A stretch of 64,000 nucleotides of DNA from the NCBI GenBank assembly GCA_963772455.1, contig CAVYXJ010000005.1, forward strand, positions 32,001-96,000, read 5' to 3'. Below the pieces are notes generated by a model. The model saw only the letters and a list, made by a program, of their open reading frames with translations. It was not told where the DNA came from and did no database searches. The position numbers were made by a program, and so were the translations under genes. This document shows positions 28,562 through 45,773 of the stretch, piece by piece. Each line of letters opens with the position of its first letter. Positions within the stretch are counted from its first letter, which is position 1. The stretch is from Candidatus Bathyarchaeota archaeon. Lineage in GTDB: Archaea; Thermoproteota; Bathyarchaeia; Bathyarchaeales; Bathycorpusculaceae.

Positions 28562-29503
28562 CTATGTTTTCTTTCTTCTACTCCAAACAACTACAACAAT
28601 AGCCACGATTGCAATTGCCAAAGCAACTAAAACCGCGATTTCAACGGGAAAGTTCTCTACTGGAACTGGCAACTTAACTGGGGATTGCATTAGAGGAAAA
28701 CGGTCTTGGTTCAATACATCGATTACGTAGCGTGTATCACCTATCCCGTCATTATTGTTATCAGTGCCATTGTAATCACTCCAGAAGTTGCCTTGTTGCC
28801 CATCATCCCAGCTATGCGGAGGCTCCGTTGTGTTATAATCTTTACATTCACAACCATTTAACTGCACAATGTTGTTTTCAAAGTCATTATGATTAATCAC
28901 GATATCAGAAGGAATTATATCGCCTACATTGTTGAAGCCAAAAAACAATCCGCGATTATTATCTGCTATGTAGTTATTCGTTACAGTTTGATTTGATCCT
29001 GAAAGCAAAATCCCAACGATATTGTTAGTTACACCATTTCCTGTTATGGAGTTATTCTTGGTCCAAATGTACATACCAATACTGAAATTTTTGACGTTCA
29101 AGTCCTTGACCGTTACACCTTCAACGTTTGGGCTTGCCAAATCAATACCTATGACGTATTGAGCCAAAGCTCCGTTAGGCAATTGATCAGGTCCTTGACC
29201 AATAAGCCACACATCCATTGCTGTACCATTATAGGGACCTGAAAGAGTGAAACCTGCACCATCAAGTATAATGTTGCTTTTCTGGATTTTTATTGCTGCA
29301 TACAGGTTATCTGTGAAAGTATAGGTGTTCCCATTCTGTACAATTGGCGCTGAAATTGGACTAACACTACCATCAGCCCGAATCACCACTGTTGATAGAG
29401 GCGCTTGAGAATCTGCGGAACCAACAAGAAAAGTTGATACCAACATGAACACTAAGAAAACGAAGGCTAAAATCAGCCTTAACCTTAAGTTTACCACTCT
29501 CAT
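28562..29503 (-). CDS. NosD-like / CASH parallel beta-helix surface protein
   Basis: Signal peptide, Asn/Gly-rich beta-helix repeats, WD.G..GNFWSDY.G.D...DGIGD..Y, C-terminal TM. Confidence 0.85.
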   Translation of the reverse strand: MRVVNLRLRLILAFVFLVFMLVSTFLVGSADSQAPLSTVVIRADGSVSPISAPIVQNGNTYTFTDNLYAAIKIQKSNIILDGAGFTLSGPYNGTAMDVWLIGQGPDQLPNGALAQYVIGIDLASPNVEGVTVKDLNVKNFSIGMYIWTKNNSITGNGVTNNIVGILLSGSNQTVTNNYIADNNRGLFFGFNNVGDIIPSDIVINHNDFENNIVQLNGCECKDYNTTEPPHSWDDGQQGNFWSDYNGTDNNNDGIGDTRYVIDVLNQDRFPLMQSPVKLPVPVENFPVEIAVLVALAIAIVAIVVVVWSRRKKT

Positions 29504-31126
29504 TATTCCACCATTACGCTATCGGATTTATTTAACCAATTCCTTGATTTGCAAACTGTTTTGCCAGCAAATTTGAATTGCAAGCAATCTTCACTGGGAC
29601 ACATTTCTACACATCGCAAACAGAAAATACATTGTGAAGACGCAACGTCTCCTTTTCTTTGTTCATAGACTTCTTTTACTTGGGTGGGGCAAACACGTTT
29701 GCATATGCCGCATTTAGTACATTTTTCTTCTACCTTATTTAGACGTACACCGCTGATCCATTTGAAGGGTGGAAAACGATTAAACAAGGCGATTAATCCT
29801 CCTAATGGACATATTTTGCACCATGATCGACGGAAGAAGAACGCCGCTACCGTAACTATTCCCAATATAATGATGTTGGTTGAGGTTATGAAATAACCTA
29901 GTTGCCAGAATTGCCCAGCGGTATCTTGAGTTATCCATTCTGGCTTCATCAATCCAACGCTTGTCTCTGTTAAGACACAAAGTGGTTTCATAGGGCAGAC
30001 TTGGCAGAATGGTGCTGAGAAATATTCGTAAACAAAGCCCCCTTTTTGGGTTCCAGCCACCAATTGTGTACCTGTTATGGCCTGAGAAGCAAAAACCACA
30101 CTTAAAATTATCAACAGTGCCAATATGAGGTAGCTTAACTGATGAAAACGCTCATTAAATCTGTCTGAGAAGTTACGCCGCTTAATCCGCAAAGCCTTTC
30201 GCAAACGCGTCATTAAATCAACATACAAGCCAAAAGGACATACCCAACCACAGAATACTCTACCCAAAACAACCGCTGCCAAAATGATTACTCCAAAAAC
30301 AATCGCTAACCTAGCCAAACCTGTAGAGTCATAATGAACTCCCCAACCACTACCAGCATTGAAGAAGGGGTAAATGTAAGCTTGAATTTGCCATAATGCG
30401 CACGTTACGGTTCTTCCGCATGGATAGAAACAGCCAAAGAAAGGCGCAGGAAAACCATCTGGCATATCTACTCCAAGAACATTGGTTCCTAATTCGATTT
30501 CATGAGCTGCAATTTGAGAGGCAGGCACAGGCAACATGTAGTGATCGATAAATATTCCAAAGAAAATGATGAATATCAAACCAACCTGGATGAGGAATCG
30601 GAAGGAACTTATTTTTCGGGTTTTGTTTCTTGTTCCAAAAAAAGCAATAATTCCCCCAACGCTGAGTAAAACAGCGGTTAAGCCAATAATTGACCAGTTA
30701 GCCTTGTAATTTATTGGTACACTCGGAGTTGGCGGCGGAGCATCAGGATTAGCGGGGTCAGTTACTTGGGCGAATAATCGGTCGCAGATGTGACCGTCTA
30801 TGGCGAATATGTTCCAGTATCCTGCCATGTCAAGTTTTTGGTTTACAGTAAAATTGCCTGTTACGGAATCCGTGAGTACATATTGTTCTATATAGGTGTA
30901 GTCTGGTCTGGTGAAAGCTACTCTTACCGTTTTGTTTAGATGCTGCCGGACACACTTGCCCTGACACCGTGACAGTTTCGTTGAGGTTAATTTGAGTTTT
31001 ATCTATATCTGCTGTTATGTGCGGTCCATAACAAGAATCTGCAGGGGCAACCTGTACACTTAGAAAATAAACAGCGATGAGGACAGCAATAGATAAACAG
31101 AAAACTGTTCGCTGTTTAATATTCAC
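29503..31126 (-). CDS. Membrane 4Fe-4S protein (NapH/MauN-like) with an N-terminal extracellular Ig-like domain (+1 frameshift near 30936; about 540 aa joined)
   Basis: GRVFCGWVCPFG, CQVCP, WCKICPLG and two CxxCxxCxxxCP motifs; removing one base joins CPAAS-NKTVRVAFTRPD...KLD-MAGYW. Confidence 0.85.
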
Positions 31127-34261: not shown

Positions 34262-34672
34262 AAGTATGCACCTTTTACCGCAAAGAAGTGCTGTTGATAT
34301 TATAAGGTTTTTGTGAAAACGATAAAATAGATGGATTTATTTTTGTGTCTTGTTTCTTATGGCGGCAAGTTGGAGTTTGCTATTAAGGTGTTTTATTGCA
34401 TTAAATTTGTAAATTTGGTAAAATGTTGTAATAATTACTTAATTTTGGTTTTTTTACGTCTTTATTTTAATCTTATTTTTGGACATCTTTTTAATGTTAA
34501 TGTTTTTTTCGGAAGAATAGTGTGCATTAGTCACGATTTATAGCATAATAGTGAACGTTTGTTAATAATATGTTAAAATCGTTTTTCACATGAGTATATT
34601 TTAAATAGAAGAGTGTTTATTTGTAGAGATAATAACCAAAAAGTTAAACGAATGTTAAAGAGGAAAATGAAA

Positions 34673-35980
34673 ATGTCATCAGGAGACATATCTTGGATAA
34701 TAACGGCAACAGCCCTAGTCATGTTAATGACACCAGCATTAGGCTTCTTTTACGGAGGCCTAGTACGCAAAAAAAACTTAGTATCAACAATCGTTCAATG
34801 CTTCGTTATCTTCGCAGTCATAAGCATAGTTTGGGCACTCTGGGGCTATAGCCTAGTATTTGGACAATCAATCAACGGCATCATAGGCTTCAGCCCATCA
34901 CTACTGGGCTTGGGCACTCTTGGCATACACGACGTAAATTCAGCCCTAGCACCTGCAATACCTGAACTCCTATTCTTCGCCTTCCAGCTAAAGTTCGCCG
35001 CAATCACACCAGCACTAATAATCGGTGCCTGCGCAGAACGATTCCGCTTCAGATCACTACTAATCTTCATGGTTTTGTGGTCAACACTCATCTACGCTCC
35101 AATAGCTCACTGGGTATGGAACCCAAGCGGATGGCTACGAGCCTTTGGCGCCATCGACTTCGCTGGAGGCATTGTAGTACACATTTCCGCAGGTTTGTCT
35201 GCCCTTGCAGCAGCACTAGTTATTGGTAGAAGAAAAGGAGACTCATGTCCAGCCCCACAAGGAAGTTCAATTCCATGGAAAGCCCATATGCAAAAACTTG
35301 ATTCCCCACCACCCGCCTTCAAACCAACTAACATTCCATACGTGCTACTTGGTGCAGCTCTGCTATGGTTTGGCTGGTTCGGATTCAACGCAGGAAGTGC
35401 ACTTGCTGCAAACGATCTTGCAGTCTCAGCTTTAGTAACAACAAACATTGCGGCAGCGGCAGCGGCAGTAAGTTGGATGATTGCCGACTGGTTGAAAAAG
35501 GGAAAACCCTCAGCAGTAGGTATAGCAATTGGCGCAGTAGTTGGGTTAGTCGCTATTACACCAGCAGCAGGCTATGTGAGCGTTTCATCAGCATTGATAA
35601 TTGGTTTGGCAGCAGGAATAATATCAAACTTGGTAGCCGGTTGGAGAGCAGGCAGATCAAAAATTGACGATACACTAGACGTATTCGCATGCCACGGAAT
35701 CGGGGGGATATGGGGTTCCCTCGCAACAGGTCTCTTCGCATCAGCAGCTATCAGCGTAGCAATAGATGTTCCAGGAATAAACGGTCTATTCTTTGGAAAC
35801 CCAGGTCAACTACTCGCACAAGTACTAGCAGTTGCCATAGTGGTACCGTTTGCGTTCTTTGGCTCCTACTTGCTGCTTAAACTGGTGAACGTGTTTTCAC
35901 CATTAAGAGTTAGCGAAAAAGCAGAAGACGCAGGCTTAGACCTTGCAGAACATGGCGAAGAAGCCTTTCAACTAGAATAG
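34673..35980 (+). CDS. amtB: Ammonium transporter
   Basis: FYGGLVR.KN, FQLKFA, DFAGGIVVH, WFGWFGFNAGS, DDTLDVF..HG, GLD.AEHGE.A; start moved to ATG 34673. Confidence 0.97.
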   Translation: MSSGDISWIITATALVMLMTPALGFFYGGLVRKKNLVSTIVQCFVIFAVISIVWALWGYSLVFGQSINGIIGFSPSLLGLGTLGIHDVNSALAPAIPELLFFAFQLKFAAITPALIIGACAERFRFRSLLIFMVLWSTLIYAPIAHWVWNPSGWLRAFGAIDFAGGIVVHISAGLSALAAALVIGRRKGDSCPAPQGSSIPWKAHMQKLDSPPPAFKPTNIPYVLLGAALLWFGWFGFNAGSALAANDLAVSALVTTNIAAAAAAVSWMIADWLKKGKPSAVGIAIGAVVGLVAITPAAGYVSVSSALIIGLAAGIISNLVAGWRAGRSKIDDTLDVFACHGIGGIWGSLATGLFASAAISVAIDVPGINGLFFGNPGQLLAQVLAVAIVVPFAFFGSYLLLKLVNVFSPLRVSEKAEDAGLDLAEHGEEAFQLE

Positions 35981-36250
35981 CACATTTCTGTGCTTAATTT
36001 TTTCCTTTTTTTGTTAAATGGTAAAGCATTTTTCTATTCTTAAATTTGACAAGATGTTGTTGAAAACCCTATTCTTTGGACAATTTTGCGAATTAAGCGT
36101 TCAACATTAGAATTATTCGCATGAATATATCGTTTATTCCTAACAGATTGGACATTTATCTATATTTAGCCTTCAATTCAATTCGAATGTATAGTTTAAA
36201 TATTTGATTGTACAAAAAAGGGGAATAACTAAGCGCAAAAAGGGGAAAAC

Positions 36251-37541
36251 ATGTCCTACAATCCAGCTGATGTCGCATGGGTTCTAACCTCAACAGCTCT
36301 AGTCATGTTGATGACACCAGCCCTAGCATTCTTCTACGGTGGCTTAGTTCGAAGAAAGAACCTTGTTTCAACACTAGTTCAATGCATAGCTATTTTTGCT
36401 GTAGTAAGCCTAGTTTGGTTCTTTTGGGGTTATAGTCTAGTATTTGGCCCTAGCGTTGGCGGAGTCATCGGAAATCTGTCTCTTGTCGGCTTAAATGGCA
36501 TCACAATAAATCAAGTTAACACTACATATGCGTCGGGCATTCCAGAAATCTTGTTCTTCGCATTCCAACTTAAATTCGCAGCAATTACCCCCGCTTTAAT
36601 CATAGGTGCTTGCGCCGAAAGAATCCGCTTTAGATCTTTGCTAATATTTGTATTATTGTGGTCCACTCTCATATATTCACCAATTGCACACTGGCTTTGG
36701 AACGTTAACGGCTGGTTGCATGTTTTAGGTGCTTGGGATTTTGCAGGTGGCATAGTGGTACACGTAGCTGCAGGACTTGTCAGCGTTGGCAGCAGCTCTA
36801 ATTGTTGGCAGAAGAAAGGGTTGTGTTTACTGGAAAGACCAGATGAAAGCATTAGATCGAAAAGAACCTGGCGCACCAGCAATGGGCACTGAATTCAAAC
36901 CAACAAACATTCCCTATGTCATTTTAGGTGCAGGTTTACTTTGGTTTGGCTGGTTCGGATTCAACGGAGGCAGCGCCTTAGCCGCCGATAGTATTGCTAT
37001 TTCTGCCGTCATTGCTACTAACTTGGCGGCGGCAGCAGCAGCGGTAAGTTGGATGCTTTTAGATTGGCTAATAAAAGGCAAACCTTCAGCAATCGGAATC
37101 TCAGTCGGCGCAGTATGCGGAATGGCTGCAGTTACTGCAGCGGCAGGTTACATTAATTTCACATCAGCAGTCATCATTGGATTAGCTGCAGGAATAATTT
37201 CGAATTTGGTGGCTAACTGGCGTGCTGGCAGATCCAAAATCGATGACACCCTTGATGTTTTTGCTTGCCATGGAATTGGCGGAATTATTGGTGCAGTATC
37301 AGTTGGTTTGTTTGCAACTGCTGCAGTTAATCCAGCTGTACGTGGGATATTCGATGGTAACACAGCTCTACTTGGAATTCAAGTTCTCGCAGTTGTGGTT
37401 GTAGCTGTTTTTTCGTTTGCTGGTTCTTATTTACTATTGAGGTTAGTGGATGTGTTTTCTCCGATTAGGGTAAGTGCAAAAGAAGAGGATGAAGGCTTGG
37501 ATATGAGCCAGCACGGCGAAGAAGCTTATAACCTTGACTAA
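36251..37541 (+). CDS. amtB: Ammonium transporter, second copy (+1 frameshift near 36776; about 429 aa joined)
   Basis: Same Amt motifs; removing C36776 joins HVAAG to LSALAAAL. Confidence 0.93.
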
Positions 37542-38323: not shown

Positions 38324-39622
38324 TCATCTACCACTTTTTTCATGCATAATTTTTCTGGTAACCCTCAAAGACAAAGCCGCAGCAGTTAACATAGTTGGTA
38401 AACCTTGAGAACGAGGCATTAACGAAAGGTCAGCAACCCAAAGATCTTGAGGTAACCATGATGGATGCATTGTTTTTACATCGTCTTTAGTTAAAGGTAC
38501 CGTGCCGCCAAGATGACCTCCATGAATCATGCCGTCAACGAAGGGTCCCATTACTCCTGACGCTTCCATTATCAATTTTGCTTCAGCTTTCGCTTTACTT
38601 AGATTCGCGTGGTCTGCTTTAGTTAGAGATTTTGTTACTGAGCCGTCGGCTGCAACAGAACCTTGTTCAGTGTCTGCAAGTTTAATCATCATGCCAACTC
38701 TGTCTTGCATTGATACATCTTTCCAGGGTTTGTGAAACCAAAAAGAGAGCAGATCGAAATATGGTGATAGAATGTAGTTTTCTTTTTTTATAAACCAATT
38801 CATGGGAGGTTCATTTAGCATATGAGAATTCTTTAATACTCCACCGATAGTGAGGACAACATCAACCCATAGATTTTCTTTTGGAACTAAATTTGACCAT
38901 TGCAAAATCTGGGCAGTGCCGATACCACCTGCCGATAAGATGACGACATCAGCTTCGAGTTTTTCTGTTGAAGATCCATGAGAAAACTGGACTCCGCAAG
39001 CATGCTTTCCATCCAAGAGTATCTTTTGGACTTTGGCATGAGTGATAAGTGAGATACCTTTTCCCAAGTAATCTCTGTAGACCCTTCTACTATCCCATTT
39101 GGCTCCGGTTATGCAGCCTAATTCGCAGTATCCGCAACCTATACATTTGCTTAAGTCAGAAACTTTTGGTGTTGGTTTTGGCCTATACCCTAATTGTTCA
39201 GCTTTATCGTACATTTGCTGCGTAAGAGGGCGCCATCTTTCCCTGGGTATAGGTAAGATTTTTAGGGTTTTCTCGATTTCTTCGTATTCTGAAGATAGGT
39301 CAAGACCGATTTCCTTAAGACCATTTTCAGCCCTCACCATGTTACCGCATGCAATTGATGTACAACCACCTTCTGTTACACCTCTGAAAATTGCCAAATC
39401 TTGGCTTGAACGAGTAACATCATAATGTGGAAAAAGATGTTTGATTGAGCTCTCATCTTTAAGAAACCAAGAACCCCTCAAAGAACTTAGCCATGAAACT
39501 TTGTGCGTGAGAGGATCAAAAGGCTTTCCTGCCTCTAAGATTATAACTTCAAAACCATTCTGGACCAGTTCTCGTGCTGCCACTGCCCCTCCAGCTCCAG
39601 ATCCAACCACAATCGCTTTCAA
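38324..39622 (-). CDS. GMC-family FAD oxidoreductase with a Cys cluster
   Basis: GSGAGG FAD motif, C.GCG.C..GC, LSAGGIGT, H.GGT, VADLSLMP...G.PT.LT. Confidence 0.9.
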   Translation of the reverse strand: MKAIVVGSGAGGAVAARELVQNGFEVIILEAGKPFDPLTHKVSWLSSLRGSWFLKDESSIKHLFPHYDVTRSSQDLAIFRGVTEGGCTSIACGNMVRAENGLKEIGLDLSSEYEEIEKTLKILPIPRERWRPLTQQMYDKAEQLGYRPKPTPKVSDLSKCIGCGYCELGCITGAKWDSRRVYRDYLGKGISLITHAKVQKILLDGKHACGVQFSHGSSTEKLEADVVILSAGGIGTAQILQWSNLVPKENLWVDVVLTIGGVLKNSHMLNEPPMNWFIKKENYILSPYFDLLSFWFHKPWKDVSMQDRVGMMIKLADTEQGSVAADGSVTKSLTKADHANLSKAKAEAKLIMEASGVMGPFVDGMIHGGHLGGTVPLTKDDVKTMHPSWLPQDLWVADLSLMPRSQGLPTMLTAAALSLRVTRKIMHEKSGR

Positions 39623-40240
39623 GTCACAGTCACTTCTCCACTAAAGTGAATATCGGCTCTACAATTTTTACAGCCTTTGGTCATGAATTCTCCAAACTTC
39701 ATTGTTACGTTTGGTTGTAATCCTTCAATGACTCCTTCGTCGGTGGCGCTTAAGATCTCACAAGTAAGCTTAGAATATTGCTTTGCCAAAGCACATCGAT
39801 AAATAATTATTTTTACGTTTGATTTATCAACCCATTCTAAATGAAATTCTATTCCTAGTATGCGATATAGAATTTTAGCTGCTTTAGTTAAATCTCTTGG
39901 ACTATTGCCGACGCCAAGTTTAGCACGAGTTTGTTTGCCTAAGTCTTGCCCTACTGAAAACAAAGCTTTTCTGCCAAGTCTGATAGTTTCTTCGTGTCCA
40001 ATTGCACTTTCTAATGCTTCAACTAGGTATGATTGAGTTTGAGCCATAATTGTTCTTTGTTCGTTAATATTTTTTGCAGGTCTGCTGTTTTTGGTTCTCT
40101 ATGTTAAAGCTATTAAGTGTATTTTTTGTGAGTAAGGTTTTGAGCGCTGTTGTTGTTTGGTCAGATATGTTTTTGAGTTCTTTGCGAATGATGTATTTTG
40201 GCGTCCACCAAGCCAAGAGGAGAAGTCTAAGACCCAGCAT
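39619..40240 (-). CDS. V4R / ATC-hydrolase-like small ligand-binding protein (+1 frameshift near 40073; about 206 aa joined)
   Basis: ATG 40240 overlaps the upstream TAA; MLGLRLLLLAWWTP... joins the 142-aa ORF; RC.L, TCEIL...DEG..EG, G...C pattern. Confidence 0.65.
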
Positions 40241-43042
40241 TACTCACCTGACTTTTCAGTTCCTCCGATGTGTAATTCGCCCTCGGGAACGACACCAGTA
40301 TAGAGTGAGTTAATAATTTTTGTGTATTTTTGGGAAATAACATTGCGTTTTAGCTTTAGAGTAGGTGTCAATTCACCGTTTTCGATGCTTAAGTTGTTAG
40401 GGAGAATTGCCCATTTCTTTATTTTTTCAGGGTTAGAAAGACGCTTATTCATTTCTTCCATAGCTCTATCAATGCATTCAAGTGTCGTTTGGTCGTAGTG
40501 TTTTTTGTCAACCCATGCAAGAGCTGAGCAATAGGGCTTTGATTCACCTATTAGAATGGCTTCTGCAACATTAGGCAGTTCTCTTATCATGCCTTCGATT
40601 TTTCCAGAATAGATACATTTACCATAAGAGGTTTTAATCAGTTCTTTCTTACGACCAAAAATAATTAAGCTTCCTTCATCGGTTAATTTGCCGATGTCAC
40701 CAGTCATTAACCAACCTTCTTTTAATGGTGGCTCAAGGGTTTTATCAAAATAACCAACAGTCACCTGAGGACCCTTTACCATTATTTCTCCGTCTTCTGC
40801 TATCTTTACTTCTGTATATGGCATTGGTTCCCCTACTGTTCCAATTCTGTTTCTTCCCAGTTGATTTATAGTAGCCAAAGGAGCTTCAGTCATTCCATAT
40901 GCGTTGTGGATTTCTATTCCGAGTTCACGATATTTTTTTAGAAGGTCTTCGTCGGAGTTTGCTGAACCAGCTATCAGTTGTGTGCATTTGTTCAAGCCTG
41001 CACGTTTTAGGGTCATGTTTCGTAAAATTTTCCGGATTGATCTTTTGACTATAGCGTTGTTTGTTTTAATGTAGAATCTTCCGAACGAGTTCTTTTCCAG
41101 GGCTTCCCATATTTTTTCATAAACACGTGGAACCGAAAAGAAAACGGTGGGTTTAACGCGTGGAAGTTCGCCTTGAAGTCTTCTGAAATCTTCTAAGTAG
41201 TAAATTTCTATTGGTGCTGGGATGTAATAGGGAGAGTAAGCCGCCAAAATTCCTTCAACTACATGTCCCATTGGCAAAAATGATAGATATTTTGAAAGGC
41301 GGTTTCTGCCTTGCCAAGAGGTTATTGACACTATCGATTCAGCCATATACCTGAGGTTTGCATGTGTAAAAATAACCCCTTTGGGTTTACCTGTTGTTCC
41401 AGAAGAGTACCTTAAAGTTGCTATGTCTCCAAAACCTATTGGAGCTTTAATTGGAACTTGATTATCTTTGCCTTTAGCAAGGAGTTCTTCCCAAGAAAGA
41501 ACATGGTCTACTGGTAGTTGAAGGAGCTGGCGCCCAGCAAATCGAAATGATTGGTACGTCTGTTGTGAGTTCTGGAATTCGAGCTAAAAGACTTGGCATA
41601 CCAATAAAGAAGAGTTTAGCTCCACTTGATTTCAAAACATCATTTACATCTGAGGGCGGAGTGGTATAGTAGAGTGGAACACTAACACCTCCAACAAGCC
41701 CAATTGCAATGTCCAATGCAAAGTATCTGGAACTATTTAGGCCTGTTAAAGCCACTCTATCACCTGACATAATTCCAAGAGCTTTTAATGCACCACTTAT
41801 AGCTAAAATTTCCTTGTGCATTTCTTGGGCCGTTTTCTTTTGGATTCTGCCCTCGATTAAGTCAAAGTAGGTGATTGAGTGGCTTTTGCTATTTAGTCTG
41901 AAAAGAACTTGTTCGTGTACTGTGCGATTCGAGCGGTGGAAGAAGCTATTATATACGGCGTATTCAAGAAGTTTTGGCATTATTTCTTTCCATTTGAAAT
42001 TGTATTTTCCAAGAAGATTATCCATGTTATCTCGATTGAATTGGCGGTTCTCGCTAAAATATGGAGAAAGGGAAATTAGGGCATCTGAAACCTTTCGGTT
42101 TCCAGTGAATGCGCGTTGAAGCTTTAGAACAGTTTTCATTGAAGAAGGTGACATAGGTAAATACATTGGGTTTGGAAGTTTACATAATAATTCAGTCTTT
42201 GCCCATTTTTGAGCTAAATCCAATAGTTCTCCGAGCTTTGGAAGTGAATCGTAGGGTGCTACTATATGGAAGGTCATTCCTTGTGCTTTGGGTTCAAAGG
42301 TGAGTTGCGCTATAGACATTGCCACATAATCAACAGGAACTATGTTAATTCTTAATGATCTACTTACCGGCATCAATCGCATTTTACCCGTTAAATATAG
42401 CCGTAATGGGAAGTAGAATGTGTTAAATGTCTTAATAGCGCCTGTTTGAGAATCGCCAACGACCATTGATGGGCGAAAGATTGAAATTGGAAACTCATTT
42501 TTCATCGACTGAACTATTAGTTCTCCCTCGTATTTGCTGCGTTCGTAATTGGTTAAGAACCCTAATTTGTCAGTTAACTCTGATTCAGCGATGATTCCAG
42601 TTCTGGCTCCAGCTACATAAGCAGTGGAAATGTAAGAAAATCGTTCCAAAGAATGATTCTTGTTGGCTTCTTTGGCTAACTCCAGAACGTTCACAGTTCC
42701 TTGGACATTAGTTTTCCTAAGTTCCTCTAATGAAACAAAACGCCAATCCGCTGCAGTATGTATGATGTGAGTTACCTTTGATGCAAGATCAAGGTAGGTG
42801 GTCTCGCTTAAGCCCAAACGGCTAGAGCTAACATCGCCGTAAACAACTTCAATTCTTGTTCCAATTGCACCATTTAGTTCGGGCCAATCCCACCAATCCC
42901 GTTCGACTTTCTTTACATCTACATCTGAGTCATTTGTTCTGACTAACGCTAGAATAGTTAAGTCAGTATTTTGCAAGAGATAGCGAACTATTTGTGTTGC
43001 AATGAAGCCGTTGGCGCCTGTAACCAACACGGTTTTTTTCAT
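40240..43042 (-). CDS. Fatty acyl/thioester reductase (extended SDR) fused to a long-chain acyl-CoA synthetase-type adenylation domain (+1 frameshift near 41520-41535; about 933 aa joined)
   Basis: TGANGFIA, IIHTAA, ISTAYV and YERSK (SDR); YSSGTTGKPKG in the gap 41347-41473; YGMTE, TGDIG, GRKK and ELTPTLKLKR (ANL). Confidence 0.88.
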
Positions 43043-44265
43043 TCAAGCCACTCCGGGTAATGTGTTTCAATAAAGGCTCTGAATAATTGTAAATTACAAG
43101 TCTCGCGTTCTCGGTATTGCTCAAATCCTTTCTTAAGTTTATCCTTAACTGAATCGTAATGGTCGAAAATGTCGCCAACATCGTTACTAAGTTCCCAGAA
43201 TCTGAGTGGATCTTCATGATCAGTGAATAGCTCACTTATCTCTAAATCAGCATAGAGATCTCTAATTCTAAGGTCATGCCCTATTGCAGTCTGAGGAACA
43301 TAATTCGGAAGAGAAAGCACTGCTGCATGGTATCTTGAAGTAATTAACAACTCCAAACTTCTGAGTATGCTAGTCATTTGTGAAGCATTATATTCTATTG
43401 AAGTGAATATTTTTGTCCGTTCAGGGTGCTTCATTAATCCTTGAACTTTATTAACGAAGCTTTTGTCCAAGCCCTCCAAGCTTAAAAGTGCAATATCTTT
43501 GTCGTGCTCCATTATGATATCGTCAGCTTGCACGGCCAAAACTTTTGCGAGAACGTCACTTTTTTCAAGACTCGCCTTAGAATGCGTATAGTAGTACGGC
43601 CATCTATAACAGTATTTTTTTCGATCCCAAAGTCTAATGTGAACAGGCCAAACATAAATGTCCTCAGCTGCAACCCCAACGACGTGAGATGCTTCTGGCC
43701 AAACTCGTTTAAGTAAGCCATTATCTTGAGGGTTTGGTTGAAATGCGAAAGCATTGTCGGCTGTAACTTCAATCGGAGCGGTTACACCCCATTTTTTAAG
43801 TCGTTCAGCAGCCGACTTGGTTCTTGCCAAAATAAGGTCAGTTTTACTCGCTTCACGTCGAATCAGCCAACTATTAAAATGACTAGCTGACCCTGCATCT
43901 ACCGAGTAAGCTATGCAAGGTTTCTTCATTGAGTGAGCATATCTGGTTGCGAGCAAGTAATACCAAAGAAGGGCTGAGCCCCAGGTATCCATATAGCAGC
44001 TTCCTTCAACAAGCATGATTAAATCGTTTTCTTTTACAAATTTTCTAATATCTAAAAAGAAAAGGGAAGGTCTGATAGATTTAATTTTGAGAGATGGGCT
44101 TTCTTTGAGGTATCTTCTAAGGTTAACTTCATTTAAGGAAGGAACTGTAATGCAGGCATCAGGTCCAAGAACGGAACGTATCTCATCAATAATTACTAGA
44201 AGTTTTGCTTCTGCCCCAGTATTATTCGCACCATTATAGCCTACAAGTAAGATCTTCGGTTTCAA
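43039..44265 (-). CDS. Polysaccharide pyruvyl transferase family protein
   Basis: GYNGANNTGAEA, L.R...A, TADNAF and TSRYHA motifs. Confidence 0.85.
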   Translation of the reverse strand: MKPKILLVGYNGANNTGAEAKLLVIIDEIRSVLGPDACITVPSLNEVNLRRYLKESPSLKIKSIRPSLFFLDIRKFVKENDLIMLVEGSCYMDTWGSALLWYYLLATRYAHSMKKPCIAYSVDAGSASHFNSWLIRREASKTDLILARTKSAAERLKKWGVTAPIEVTADNAFAFQPNPQDNGLLKRVWPEASHVVGVAAEDIYVWPVHIRLWDRKKYCYRWPYYYTHSKASLEKSDVLAKVLAVQADDIIMEHDKDIALLSLEGLDKSFVNKVQGLMKHPERTKIFTSIEYNASQMTSILRSLELLITSRYHAAVLSLPNYVPQTAIGHDLRIRDLYADLEISELFTDHEDPLRFWELSNDVGDIFDHYDSVKDKLKKGFEQYRERETCNLQLFRAFIETHYPEWLE

Positions 44266-44571: not shown

Positions 44572-45773
44572 TTGGAGTTTAAGAAAATGACAGGACCAGA
44601 ACAAACTGACACATCATCGCAAACTAGTTTCTCTGCATCACCAGCAGCTCCCAGTGCGCCTTTAGAACTTATGCAGAAACGATGGTTCTGCATGGGCATA
44701 GAGCCTTCGGGAAAAACCTTTAAACATGAAGCTGAATCTTCGGCAACCCTTCTGGAAAAAATAAATCAATCGATGGTTACGTGGGTAGATTACATCACTG
44801 ATAATCCAATGAAAGATCTTCCTGCTGTGGCGGCTCAAATGGGTTTCAGTGAATCTTTTATTTCCAATCTTTCTTGTTGTGAACAACTAAATTATGAAGA
44901 CTTTGACAATGAGATGTGGATGAGTTTTCCCTCGGTACAGATCCGTGGAACGGAGGTTAAAGCACATCCGTTGCTTATTTTAATCAAAAAGAACATGGTT
45001 TTTACTCTGCACATGCGTTTGGTTGACAAAAGATTCATCCGACTACGAAGATACTCTGAAGCGATTCTTAGAAAAATACCCATCGACGCTAATCCAGAAG
45101 ACAAACTGACAATTCTCTTATCACGGATAATTGATGCAAACAACGACAGCAATTTTAGACATCTTCGAGTGATAGAAGAATTCGGAGACGAATTAAACAA
45201 GGATTTAATGAATCAAGATACTGACAAAGCCCAATTGGGTCCAAAAATATACATAATGAAGCATGCCCTCATCATTTACATGAACGCTCTCTGGGAAAGC
45301 GTTGACGTACTTCAAGCTATTCGATATGGGGATGCTCAACTGCTAACAGATGACCAAAAAATTGTGAACCTCTTCAGCGCGATGGTGGAGCAAGTTAAGA
45401 GCCAGATTGGATTATCAGAACACATGTCTGAGGTTTTGGCTTCAGGAATAGAAGCTACCCAAGCAATATACAATAACCAGTTAACAACAGCAAATAATCA
45501 ATTAACATATCGAACAATCAATTGACTATTCTCAATAACCGTTTTGCTAAACTTGCAGCTTACCTCACAATAGTAGGCACAGCACTTTTGATACCTAACA
45601 CCATTGCAACTATTCTGGGCAACTCTGTTTGGGTGTATGGACCAGAAAGTCTGGGGGTGTACTTGCTTTTAATGATTGGCACTACTTTAGCTGGAAGCAT
45701 CTTTATGTGGTATTGGATAAGCAAGAAAGGTCTATTGCCGCAAGACAAAGAGATCTGCACTGAACAATCATAG
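44572..45773 (+). CDS. corA: CorA-family transporter (one base missing near 45507; about 400 aa joined)
   Basis: WVDY, stalk helices, LTIVGT.LLIPNTIAT, two C-terminal TMs. Confidence 0.8.

Follow-up and report, generated by a model that had tools for sequence, protein, structure and literature searches.

In ElbD of Myxococcus xanthus, domains resembling fatty acyl-CoA reductase (FAR), acyl-CoA synthetase (ACS), acyl carrier protein (ACP) and AGPAT are joined (PMC9131029). Enzymes of the PF04230 family act mostly on sugars (PMC10435577). Their conserved motifs are NxGD, RxxxS/T, and a histidine; in Pvg1p, Asp106 of the first motif contacts galactose, and the D106A variant is almost inactive (PMC10629545). 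For CsaB, Arg148 and His308 matter for phosphoenolpyruvate (PEP), and the K328R variant stays active (PMC10435577). Additionally, a pyruvate acetal on a lipid 1,3-diol has been assigned to a putative enzyme of this family (PMC13291983), and for V4R folds the binding of hydrophobic ligands has been proposed (PMC2253512). In this study, we analyzed 64,000 nucleotides of DNA from Candidatus Bathyarchaeota archaeon (assembly GCA_963772455.1, contig CAVYXJ010000005.1, positions 32,001 to 96,000; hereafter the window), in which four minus-strand genes lie head to tail from 44265 to 38324. They encode a pyruvyltransferase-like protein (the transferase), a fusion of a thioester reductase domain (R) with an acyl-CoA ligase-type adenylation domain (A), a V4R-fold protein, and a short GMC flavoprotein. 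All of these parts belong to known families, while their combination is unassigned.

The fusion protein, R-A, contains no recognizable carrier domain: PP-binding matches are absent from the window protein and from full-length members, and the GxDS[LI] motif is absent from 55 sequences. In 55 near-full-length relatives, R keeps TGxxGxxG, S-T-A-Y, YxxxK, and a mostly conserved arginine after the second strand, and A keeps the P-loop, AYGxxEAP, TGD, GRKK, and the terminal lysine; the catalytic roles of these motifs are presumed here. R precedes A in 26 of the 31 two-domain representatives, and all 26 belong to the R-A family. The best solved matches of R-A are carboxylic acid reductase (CAR), MxaA and mycobacterial nonribosomal peptide synthetase (NRPS) reductases, a polyketide synthase (PKS) reductase, and acyl-CoA ligases, and the R domain by itself matches best the thioester reductases of CAR, NRPS, and PKS. 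FAR-type fatty acyl-CoA reductases are defined by the C-terminal Sterile domain PF03015, for which matches were lacking both in the window protein (E 0.01) and in full-length members (E 0.001). Collectively, the reductase-then-ligase fusion without a carrier domain, which the original prediction had drawn from the window alone, is real and conserved as a single frame of approximately 930 amino acids (aa) in relatives, while the label of fatty-acyl reductase attached to it is loose.

Among the best 150 of 1.84 billion representatives, we found the R-A family, ligases mostly of 500–700 aa, a few NRPS-type giants, and one carrier-less protein of the order A-R, and no protein of 1,300–1,600 aa, the length of ElbD. 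The A domains of the family form one clade (support 1.0) with ligases of 500–700 aa as neighbors, and the nearest stand-alone ligases score best on the FadD11 model in three of three cases tested, below its cut-off. With stand-alone FadD11-like ligases as its nearest relatives, A would activate a fatty-type acid with ATP to acyl-AMP and would then form acyl-CoA on free CoA. R would reduce the thioester with NADPH to the aldehyde or the alcohol, by two or four electrons. As judged from motifs and relatedness, this conversion of an acid through acyl-AMP and acyl-CoA to an aldehyde or alcohol by R-A is likely.

The choice of carrier can be addressed with copies of R-A that stand apart from the other three genes. 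Four stand-alone copies show dN/dS ratios of 0.11–0.13 versus 0.10–0.14 for cassette copies, which places stand-alone R-A, as estimated from these ratios, under purifying selection. R-A that persists alone in this way would therefore be useful without the other three genes and would need no dedicated cassette carrier, and free CoA is thereby favored. Of the nine stand-alone copies in the tree, seven group in a clade of their own (SH 100); two long branches also meet in this tree (L076 and P0130), and no conclusion rests on them. The stand-alone clade (L014, L015, and L096–L100, all from the same genus) has, in most copies, a changed P-loop (xxGSTG) and often lies beside a conserved gene of approximately 670 aa, and genomes G333 and G386 carry both a copy of this clade and a cassette copy. 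A protein of 959 aa (P0155) has the opposite order A-R, with the domains approximately 20 residues apart and no carrier, and is 28–29% identical to R-A. Another protein, P0293 (1,115 aa), continues from R-A into V4R, but we do not accept it as a genuine fusion, because it is a single record with a frameshifted tail.

The four genes and their three overlapping junctions are exactly where they had been predicted, the coordinates and overlap letters having been re-read (Table 1): ATGA at 43042–43039, TAATG at 40242–40238, and TTGA at 39622–39619. In the window, the Pfam matches of the second gene are spread over two pieces. The extra base between them is missing from contigs of three of four sequencing runs (two samples, two studies) that are approximately 95% identical to the window. 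Moreover, R-A is a single open frame of 928–940 aa in five of the seven genomes with a match, is frameshifted at another place in one, and is cut by a contig end in the other. The repair of one indel proposed originally is therefore right for R-A but incomplete, as a second frameshift had been missed. The ATG within TAATG opens only 58 codons, with a stop at approximately 40064, and V4R relatives encode approximately 200 aa with the same MGLRL...WWTP N-terminus as this 58-codon frame. Since the V4R-fold gene has its own extra base, the predicted coupling of the third junction holds as an overlap, while it becomes a true coupling of a continuous V4R frame to the GMC gene only after the second repair.

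Table 1. Coordinates of the cassette genes and of the two extra bases in the window
Feature	Position	Strand	Evidence
Pyruvyltransferase-like GT-B protein, 408 aa	43039..44265	-	PF04230 2e-17, above cut-off
R-A: thioester reductase (R) + acyl-CoA ligase-type adenylation (A), ~930 aa if read through	40240..43042	-	PF07993, PF00501, PF23562
V4R/Bet3-fold protein, ~200 aa if read through	39619..40240	-	PF14196 2e-10
Short GMC flavoprotein, 432 aa	38324..39622	-	PF00732 4e-20 + Fer4 motif
Extra base splitting R-A	41500..41512 (~41505)	.	Frame switch; base absent in ~95%-identical contigs
Second extra base, splitting V4R-fold gene	40075..40090 (~40082)	.	Gap vs locus L026; one ~95%-identical contig

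Both extra bases are probably assembly errors, and an assembly error is more likely than decay because other genes nearby are frameshifted too. It is unlikely that the window's copy is decaying while the cassette is real elsewhere. Two frameshifts within four genes, neither inside a long homopolymer, would fit such decay, as would the decayed cassettes known in genomes G354 and G388; however, the frameshifted neighbors (the second amt gene and a Cys-motif membrane gene) are unrelated to the cassette, several relatives are broken at different places, and the window's copy has no other in-frame stops and keeps its motifs intact. The synonymous distance (dS) between the window and intact relatives is saturated in 11 of 15 comparisons.

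By sequence comparison, the cassette behaves as two modules, one formed by the transferase and R-A and the other by V4R and the iron–sulfur (Fe-S) GMC protein. In the 32 loci where all four genes are nearly complete, the strongest correlations of pairwise distances are those of V4R with GMC (r 0.94, partial 0.88) and of the transferase with R-A (r 0.85, partial 0.70), values that are inflated by the shared ancestry of kin and overstate co-evolution. In five loci, a short-V4R subtype is accompanied by a GMC of the AGHPGG type; the R-A and transferase trees do not show this grouping. The arrangement of individual loci agrees with two modules as well: L064 moves V4R-GMC as a block, and L076 consists of the transferase and R-A with an unrelated gene behind.

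To describe the spread of the cassette, we counted genes in 120 genomes of the genus by profile search. All four genes are present in 27 of them, a count made from the per-gene lists (R-A 35, transferase 31, GMC 30, V4R 28); R-A is found alone in seven, and V4R was never found without the transferase and GMC. The cassettes of G354 and G388 look decayed, and three further genomes have a single gene that is partial or at a contig edge. In a draw across the class, R-A within Bathyarchaeia is limited to the window's family, being present in 24 of 147 genomes there and in none of 253 from other families. The titles of close relatives read Candidatus Bathyarchaeota; by name, the other archaeal homologues come from Methanobacterium, Methanothermobacter, Methanothrix, Methanomassiliicoccales, and Thermoplasmata, and the bacterial ones from Bacillota, Chloroflexi/Anaerolineae, Ignavibacteria, and Spirochaetia, with WOR-3 in addition. 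The pathway is thus not restricted to archaea, as had been supposed at first. The V4R protein of L038 has an identical counterpart named from Methanobacterium subterraneum, the V4R protein of L055 has one named from Methanobacterium sp. ACI-7, and 1,834 proteins belong to the transferase family at E 1e-60 or better. Among 90 R-A loci, which include near kin and are not independent, 41 have all four genes, 37 are partial or cut by contig ends, and 12 have R-A alone; the gene order of the window is kept in 40 of the 41, the exception being L064, with V4R-GMC in front. The four genes therefore travel together, and their orthologs are not consistently separate or unlinked.

Searches further afield returned little. 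In 251 genomes drawn from the phylum of G061, the only match was in G061 itself, and none of 200 matching plasmid records covers 80% of a full R-A. A Granulicella plasmid (L110:6010-8705) carries separate, adjacent reductase and adenylate-forming genes near a glycosyltransferase-like gene and an ABC transporter, and this reductase is 33% identical to the R domain. A sigma-70 promoter scan, a method not suited to archaea, gave nothing usable.

Based on structural prediction, the transferase adopts a GT-B fold (AF2 model, pLDDT 93.8) with Z 17.8 to Pvg1p (5ax7), and PDB sequence and profile searches with the transferase alignment gave no significant match. It scores 96.8 bits on the CsaB model, with a cut-off of 213, and is also below the WcaK cut-off. 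Arg148, Arg311, and His313, the PEP-binding Arg/His residues, are invariant in 42 of 42 transferases, and Arg211, a candidate counterpart of the loop arginine Arg207 of CsaB, is nearly invariant in the family. The S/T position of RxxxS/T is mostly Ala. The NxGD motif reads NTGAE in 23, NTGSE in 18, and NTGAD in one of the 42 aligned sequences (NTGAE in the window), and in further hits the position reads SE in 119 of 120, the remaining one having no N-terminus. For comparison, control PF04230 proteins from 30 loci of the same genus keep the aspartate in 22 of 26 scorable cases, most of these controls being one ortholog group and the crude pattern possibly having missed it in the other four. The glutamate of NTG[AS]E is also present in NxGD proteins and is therefore not a shifted substitute for the lost aspartate. 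Loss of the NxGD aspartate together with retention of the PEP-site Arg/His points to PEP binding with a non-sugar acceptor, as far as residue conservation can indicate. In other words, the use of PEP on sugars, which had been expected originally, is doubtful for the cassette transferase, since the aspartate is absent across its family, and this pyruvyltransferase clade may carry out a different chemistry.

The V4R-fold protein scores 41.9 bits on PF14196, with a cut-off of 28.1. The model of an intact relative (L022, pLDDT 93.2) matches Bet3 with Z 10.2 (2cfh; rmsd 2.8, 139 residues aligned) and the PoxR sensor with Z 9.7; the DmpR sensor and H-NOX are also matched. Cys149, Cys160, Asp167, and Cys193 are invariant in 47 of 47 sequences, which suggests a metal site, predicted here from conservation. 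PDB sequence and profile searches with the V4R alignment gave no significant match, and no larger protein with a fused V4R domain was found, which is weak evidence. In GMC, the CxxCxxCxxGC motif and His370 are invariant in 40 of 40 sequences, and the GxGxxG FAD motif is present. The best solved match of the GMC profile is cholesterol oxidase, at E 1e-12, and the protein is far below all NCBIfam cut-offs, with 51.8 bits versus 400 and 34 versus 300 on the MftG models. In anaerobes, a Fe-S-linked dehydrogenase is more plausible for this protein than an oxidase. The predicted complex of GMC and FAD with the V4R protein scored 0.00 in two runs, which counts neither way.

For the cassette as a whole, we tentatively favor a route in which reduction by R-A is combined with a PEP-derived cap and a flavin/Fe-S redox step by GMC with V4R, a combination that is possible but falls short of the likelihood of its first step. 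The GT-B protein would bind PEP through Arg148, Arg311, and His313 and move a C3 unit to a lipid hydroxyl; on a diol the cap would be a cyclic acetal, and on an acceptor with one hydroxyl an enol ether. GMC would oxidize a CH-OH group of a hydrophobic intermediate and pass electrons through the predicted 4Fe-4S cluster, with the flavodoxin-like proteins that many loci encode upstream as possible acceptors, while the V4R protein would bind or process this intermediate at its predicted metal site. The TetR gene beside the cassette in 12 loci was counted in favor of this route.

Several observations weigh against the route. The top fold matches of the transferase model are UDP-GlcNAc 2-epimerases and glycosyltransferases, with Z up to 24, above Pvg1p, although WbbZ shows the same pattern (PMC10629545). 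Loss of the aspartate would equally fit a transferase that has another donor or is non-catalytic. Furthermore, the invariant Pro409 of GMC aligns with the asparagine of cholesterol oxidase that we take to be its second active-site residue (His/Asn), so that the usual second residue is missing; one GMC subtype has an asparagine one place earlier. If both worked on the same carbon, the reductase and the alcohol oxidase of one operon could undo each other's effect. The long-chain preference is deduced from family likeness of approximately 30% identity, and the route presupposes a supply of fatty acids in these archaea. Finally, the distance correlations are inflated as described above, and the window's copy has two frameshifts.

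An alternative is that the cassette serves the detoxification or salvage of a hydrophobic compound from outside, such as a long-chain fatty acid or a sterol-like or aromatic acid. A TetR sensor would induce the genes, GMC-V4R would oxidize a hydroxyl, R-A would reduce the carboxyl, and the transferase would conjugate the product. Long-chain fatty acids are toxic to methanogens. In the 93 loci scanned for accessory genes, TetR occurs in 12, an FMN-reductase-like gene in 11, and a flavodoxin in seven, together with a Cys-motif membrane protein in 18 and an acyltransferase-3 in three; none of these five types adjoins the window's copy. The first three types would suit such a scheme, as would the patchy spread, the decayed copies in G354 and G388, and cholesterol oxidase as the best solved GMC match. 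However, this match is weak, no transporter recurs among the neighbor clusters present in at least three loci, and the ATP-, NADPH-, and PEP-consuming steps look biosynthetic. We therefore regard detoxification as improbable.

Some neighbors are recorded here in their own right. In many copies from Bathyarchaeia (L022:12743-13216 and 17 other loci), GMC is followed by a hydrophobic protein of approximately 150 aa with a CxxCxxCxxC motif and no Pfam match; this protein is absent at the window locus and has distant homologues on contigs C7 and C9. In L048, L054, L075, and L081, the genes 3' of GMC resemble an energy-converting hydrogenase operon, as judged from the starts of the open reading frames (ORFs). 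Within the window, a second ammonium transporter gene (36200-37541, frameshift near 36800) is 63% identical to the first (34613-35980), and a membrane protein with CxxCxxCxxxCP motifs (29503-31126) is apparently split by a frameshift near 31000. Upstream of the cassette, a CorA-like gene (44572-45773) matches profile positions 4–236 of 292 only and is followed by an 83-aa hydrophobic ORF, probably owing to a frameshift.

Less probable again is the tailoring of a glycan or surface polymer, in which the transferase would pyruvylate a sugar, R-A would activate and reduce the pyruvate carboxyl or supply an acyl group, and GMC would oxidize a sugar hydroxyl. The mostly sugar-directed activity of PF04230 enzymes (PMC10435577) is consistent with this, and in three loci that look bacterial, the cassette is preceded by a gene for a membrane acyltransferase-3 (L032:677-2002, L041:3654-5057, and L064:1883-3025). 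In contrast, the sugar-contacting aspartate is lost, separate NxGD-type transferases occur in the same genus, and glycosyltransferase and nucleotide-sugar genes do not recur as neighbors of the cassette beyond a single close group. We further considered, as a quite doubtful extension, that the cassette is a new route to an ether bond. The fatty alcohol made by R-A would be joined to PEP as an enolpyruvyl ether by the aspartate-less transferase, and R-A, V4R, and the Fe-S flavoprotein would then hydrate, reduce, or oxidize the C3 head to an alkyl lactyl or glycerol-like ether. If this were true, non-isoprenoid ether lipids would arise in archaea and anaerobic bacteria with no need of AGPS, ElbD, or Ger.

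It is very improbable that V4R takes the place of CoA or ACP and itself carries the acyl group on a cysteine between A and R. The three invariant cysteines, the covalently bound palmitate in structures of its top fold match Bet3 (title of 6aq3), and the R-A-V4R read-through in P0293 would agree with such a role; however, seven genomes keep R-A without a V4R homologue, V4R tracks GMC and not R-A, and P0293 is a single record that differs from its sister protein by a C-terminal frameshift. Finally, the least probable reading is an alkyl ether lipid pathway of the ElbD type to which separate proteins would contribute ACP and acyltransferase in trans. The likeness to ElbD noted originally holds for the kind and order of the first two domains (PMC9131029) and no further: R-A has neither an ACP nor an acyltransferase domain, HAD and AGPS genes are absent from the recurring neighbors, and the best 150 representatives include no ElbD-length protein.

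No characterized pathway was found to match the cassette, and no description of it was found in the literature, of which subscription journals were mostly outside coverage and supplements could list the genes; the pathway thus appears undescribed, as originally predicted. Passages of 10.64898/2026.06.23.733905, PMC11948995, and PMC11868695, on ElbD/FarA homologues, make no mention of the two-domain R-A form or the cassette. The cassette is frequent and present in cultured hosts such as Methanobacterium subterraneum, which makes it testable now. If the proposed route of acid reduction and capping is true, methanogens and Bathyarchaeia would have a product derived from a fatty acyl group, with consequences for the archaeal–bacterial lipid divide and for orphan lipids of soils and sediments. 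Likewise, R-A working on free CoA would be an acid reductase that needs no phosphopantetheinyl transferase, useful for making aldehydes or alcohols.

Compared with known systems, CAR (NF041592; PDB 5mso, 5msc) provides the best solved matches for both halves of R-A (E 1e-34 and 8e-34), has the same kinds of domains, and would share the net chemistry proposed for R-A from its sequence. However, CAR has the order A-T-R with a phosphopantetheine carrier, whereas the cassette enzyme has the order R-A without one and scores 206 bits with a CAR cut-off of 1300. ElbD, like R-A, carries a reductase followed by an acyl-CoA synthetase in one chain; in a comparison by domain description, R-A frames of approximately 910–970 aa end after A, and the ACP and acyltransferase of ElbD are absent. 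Neighbors of the elbB/C/E type are absent too, the recurring ones being the transferase, V4R, GMC, TetR, and flavodoxin-like genes. By its domain content, R-A is thus neither CAR nor ElbD, lacking what defines each of them. The ketal pyruvyltransferases CsaB, Pvg1p, and WbbZ share PF04230, the GT-B fold, and the Arg and Arg-x-His PEP site with the cassette transferase, which has an arginine at the position presumably equivalent to CsaB Lys328. The cassette transferase differs from them in having NxG[AS]E for NxGD and in its linkage to lipid-type enzymes, not glycan genes. By description, it can be likened to the putative family enzymes assigned to lipid hydroxyls, ChtnH (chitinimine) and a megapolipeptin relative, which, unlike the cassette, sit in clusters of PKS, NRPS, and polyunsaturated fatty acid (PUFA) synthesis genes (PMC13291983). 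The V4R/Bet3/H-NOX proteins, including the PoxR and DmpR sensors, share the fold (Z 10.2, 9.7, and 9.4) and a Cys-rich putative metal site, while the cassette V4R stands alone, has a helical N-terminal extension, and is tied to a GMC gene. Similarly, known GMC enzymes (cholesterol oxidase 1coy and the mycofactocin MftG models) share the FAD motif, PF00732, and the conserved histidine with the cassette GMC, which is distinguished by its length of approximately 430 aa, its invariant four-Cys motif, and a proline in place of the second catalytic residue.

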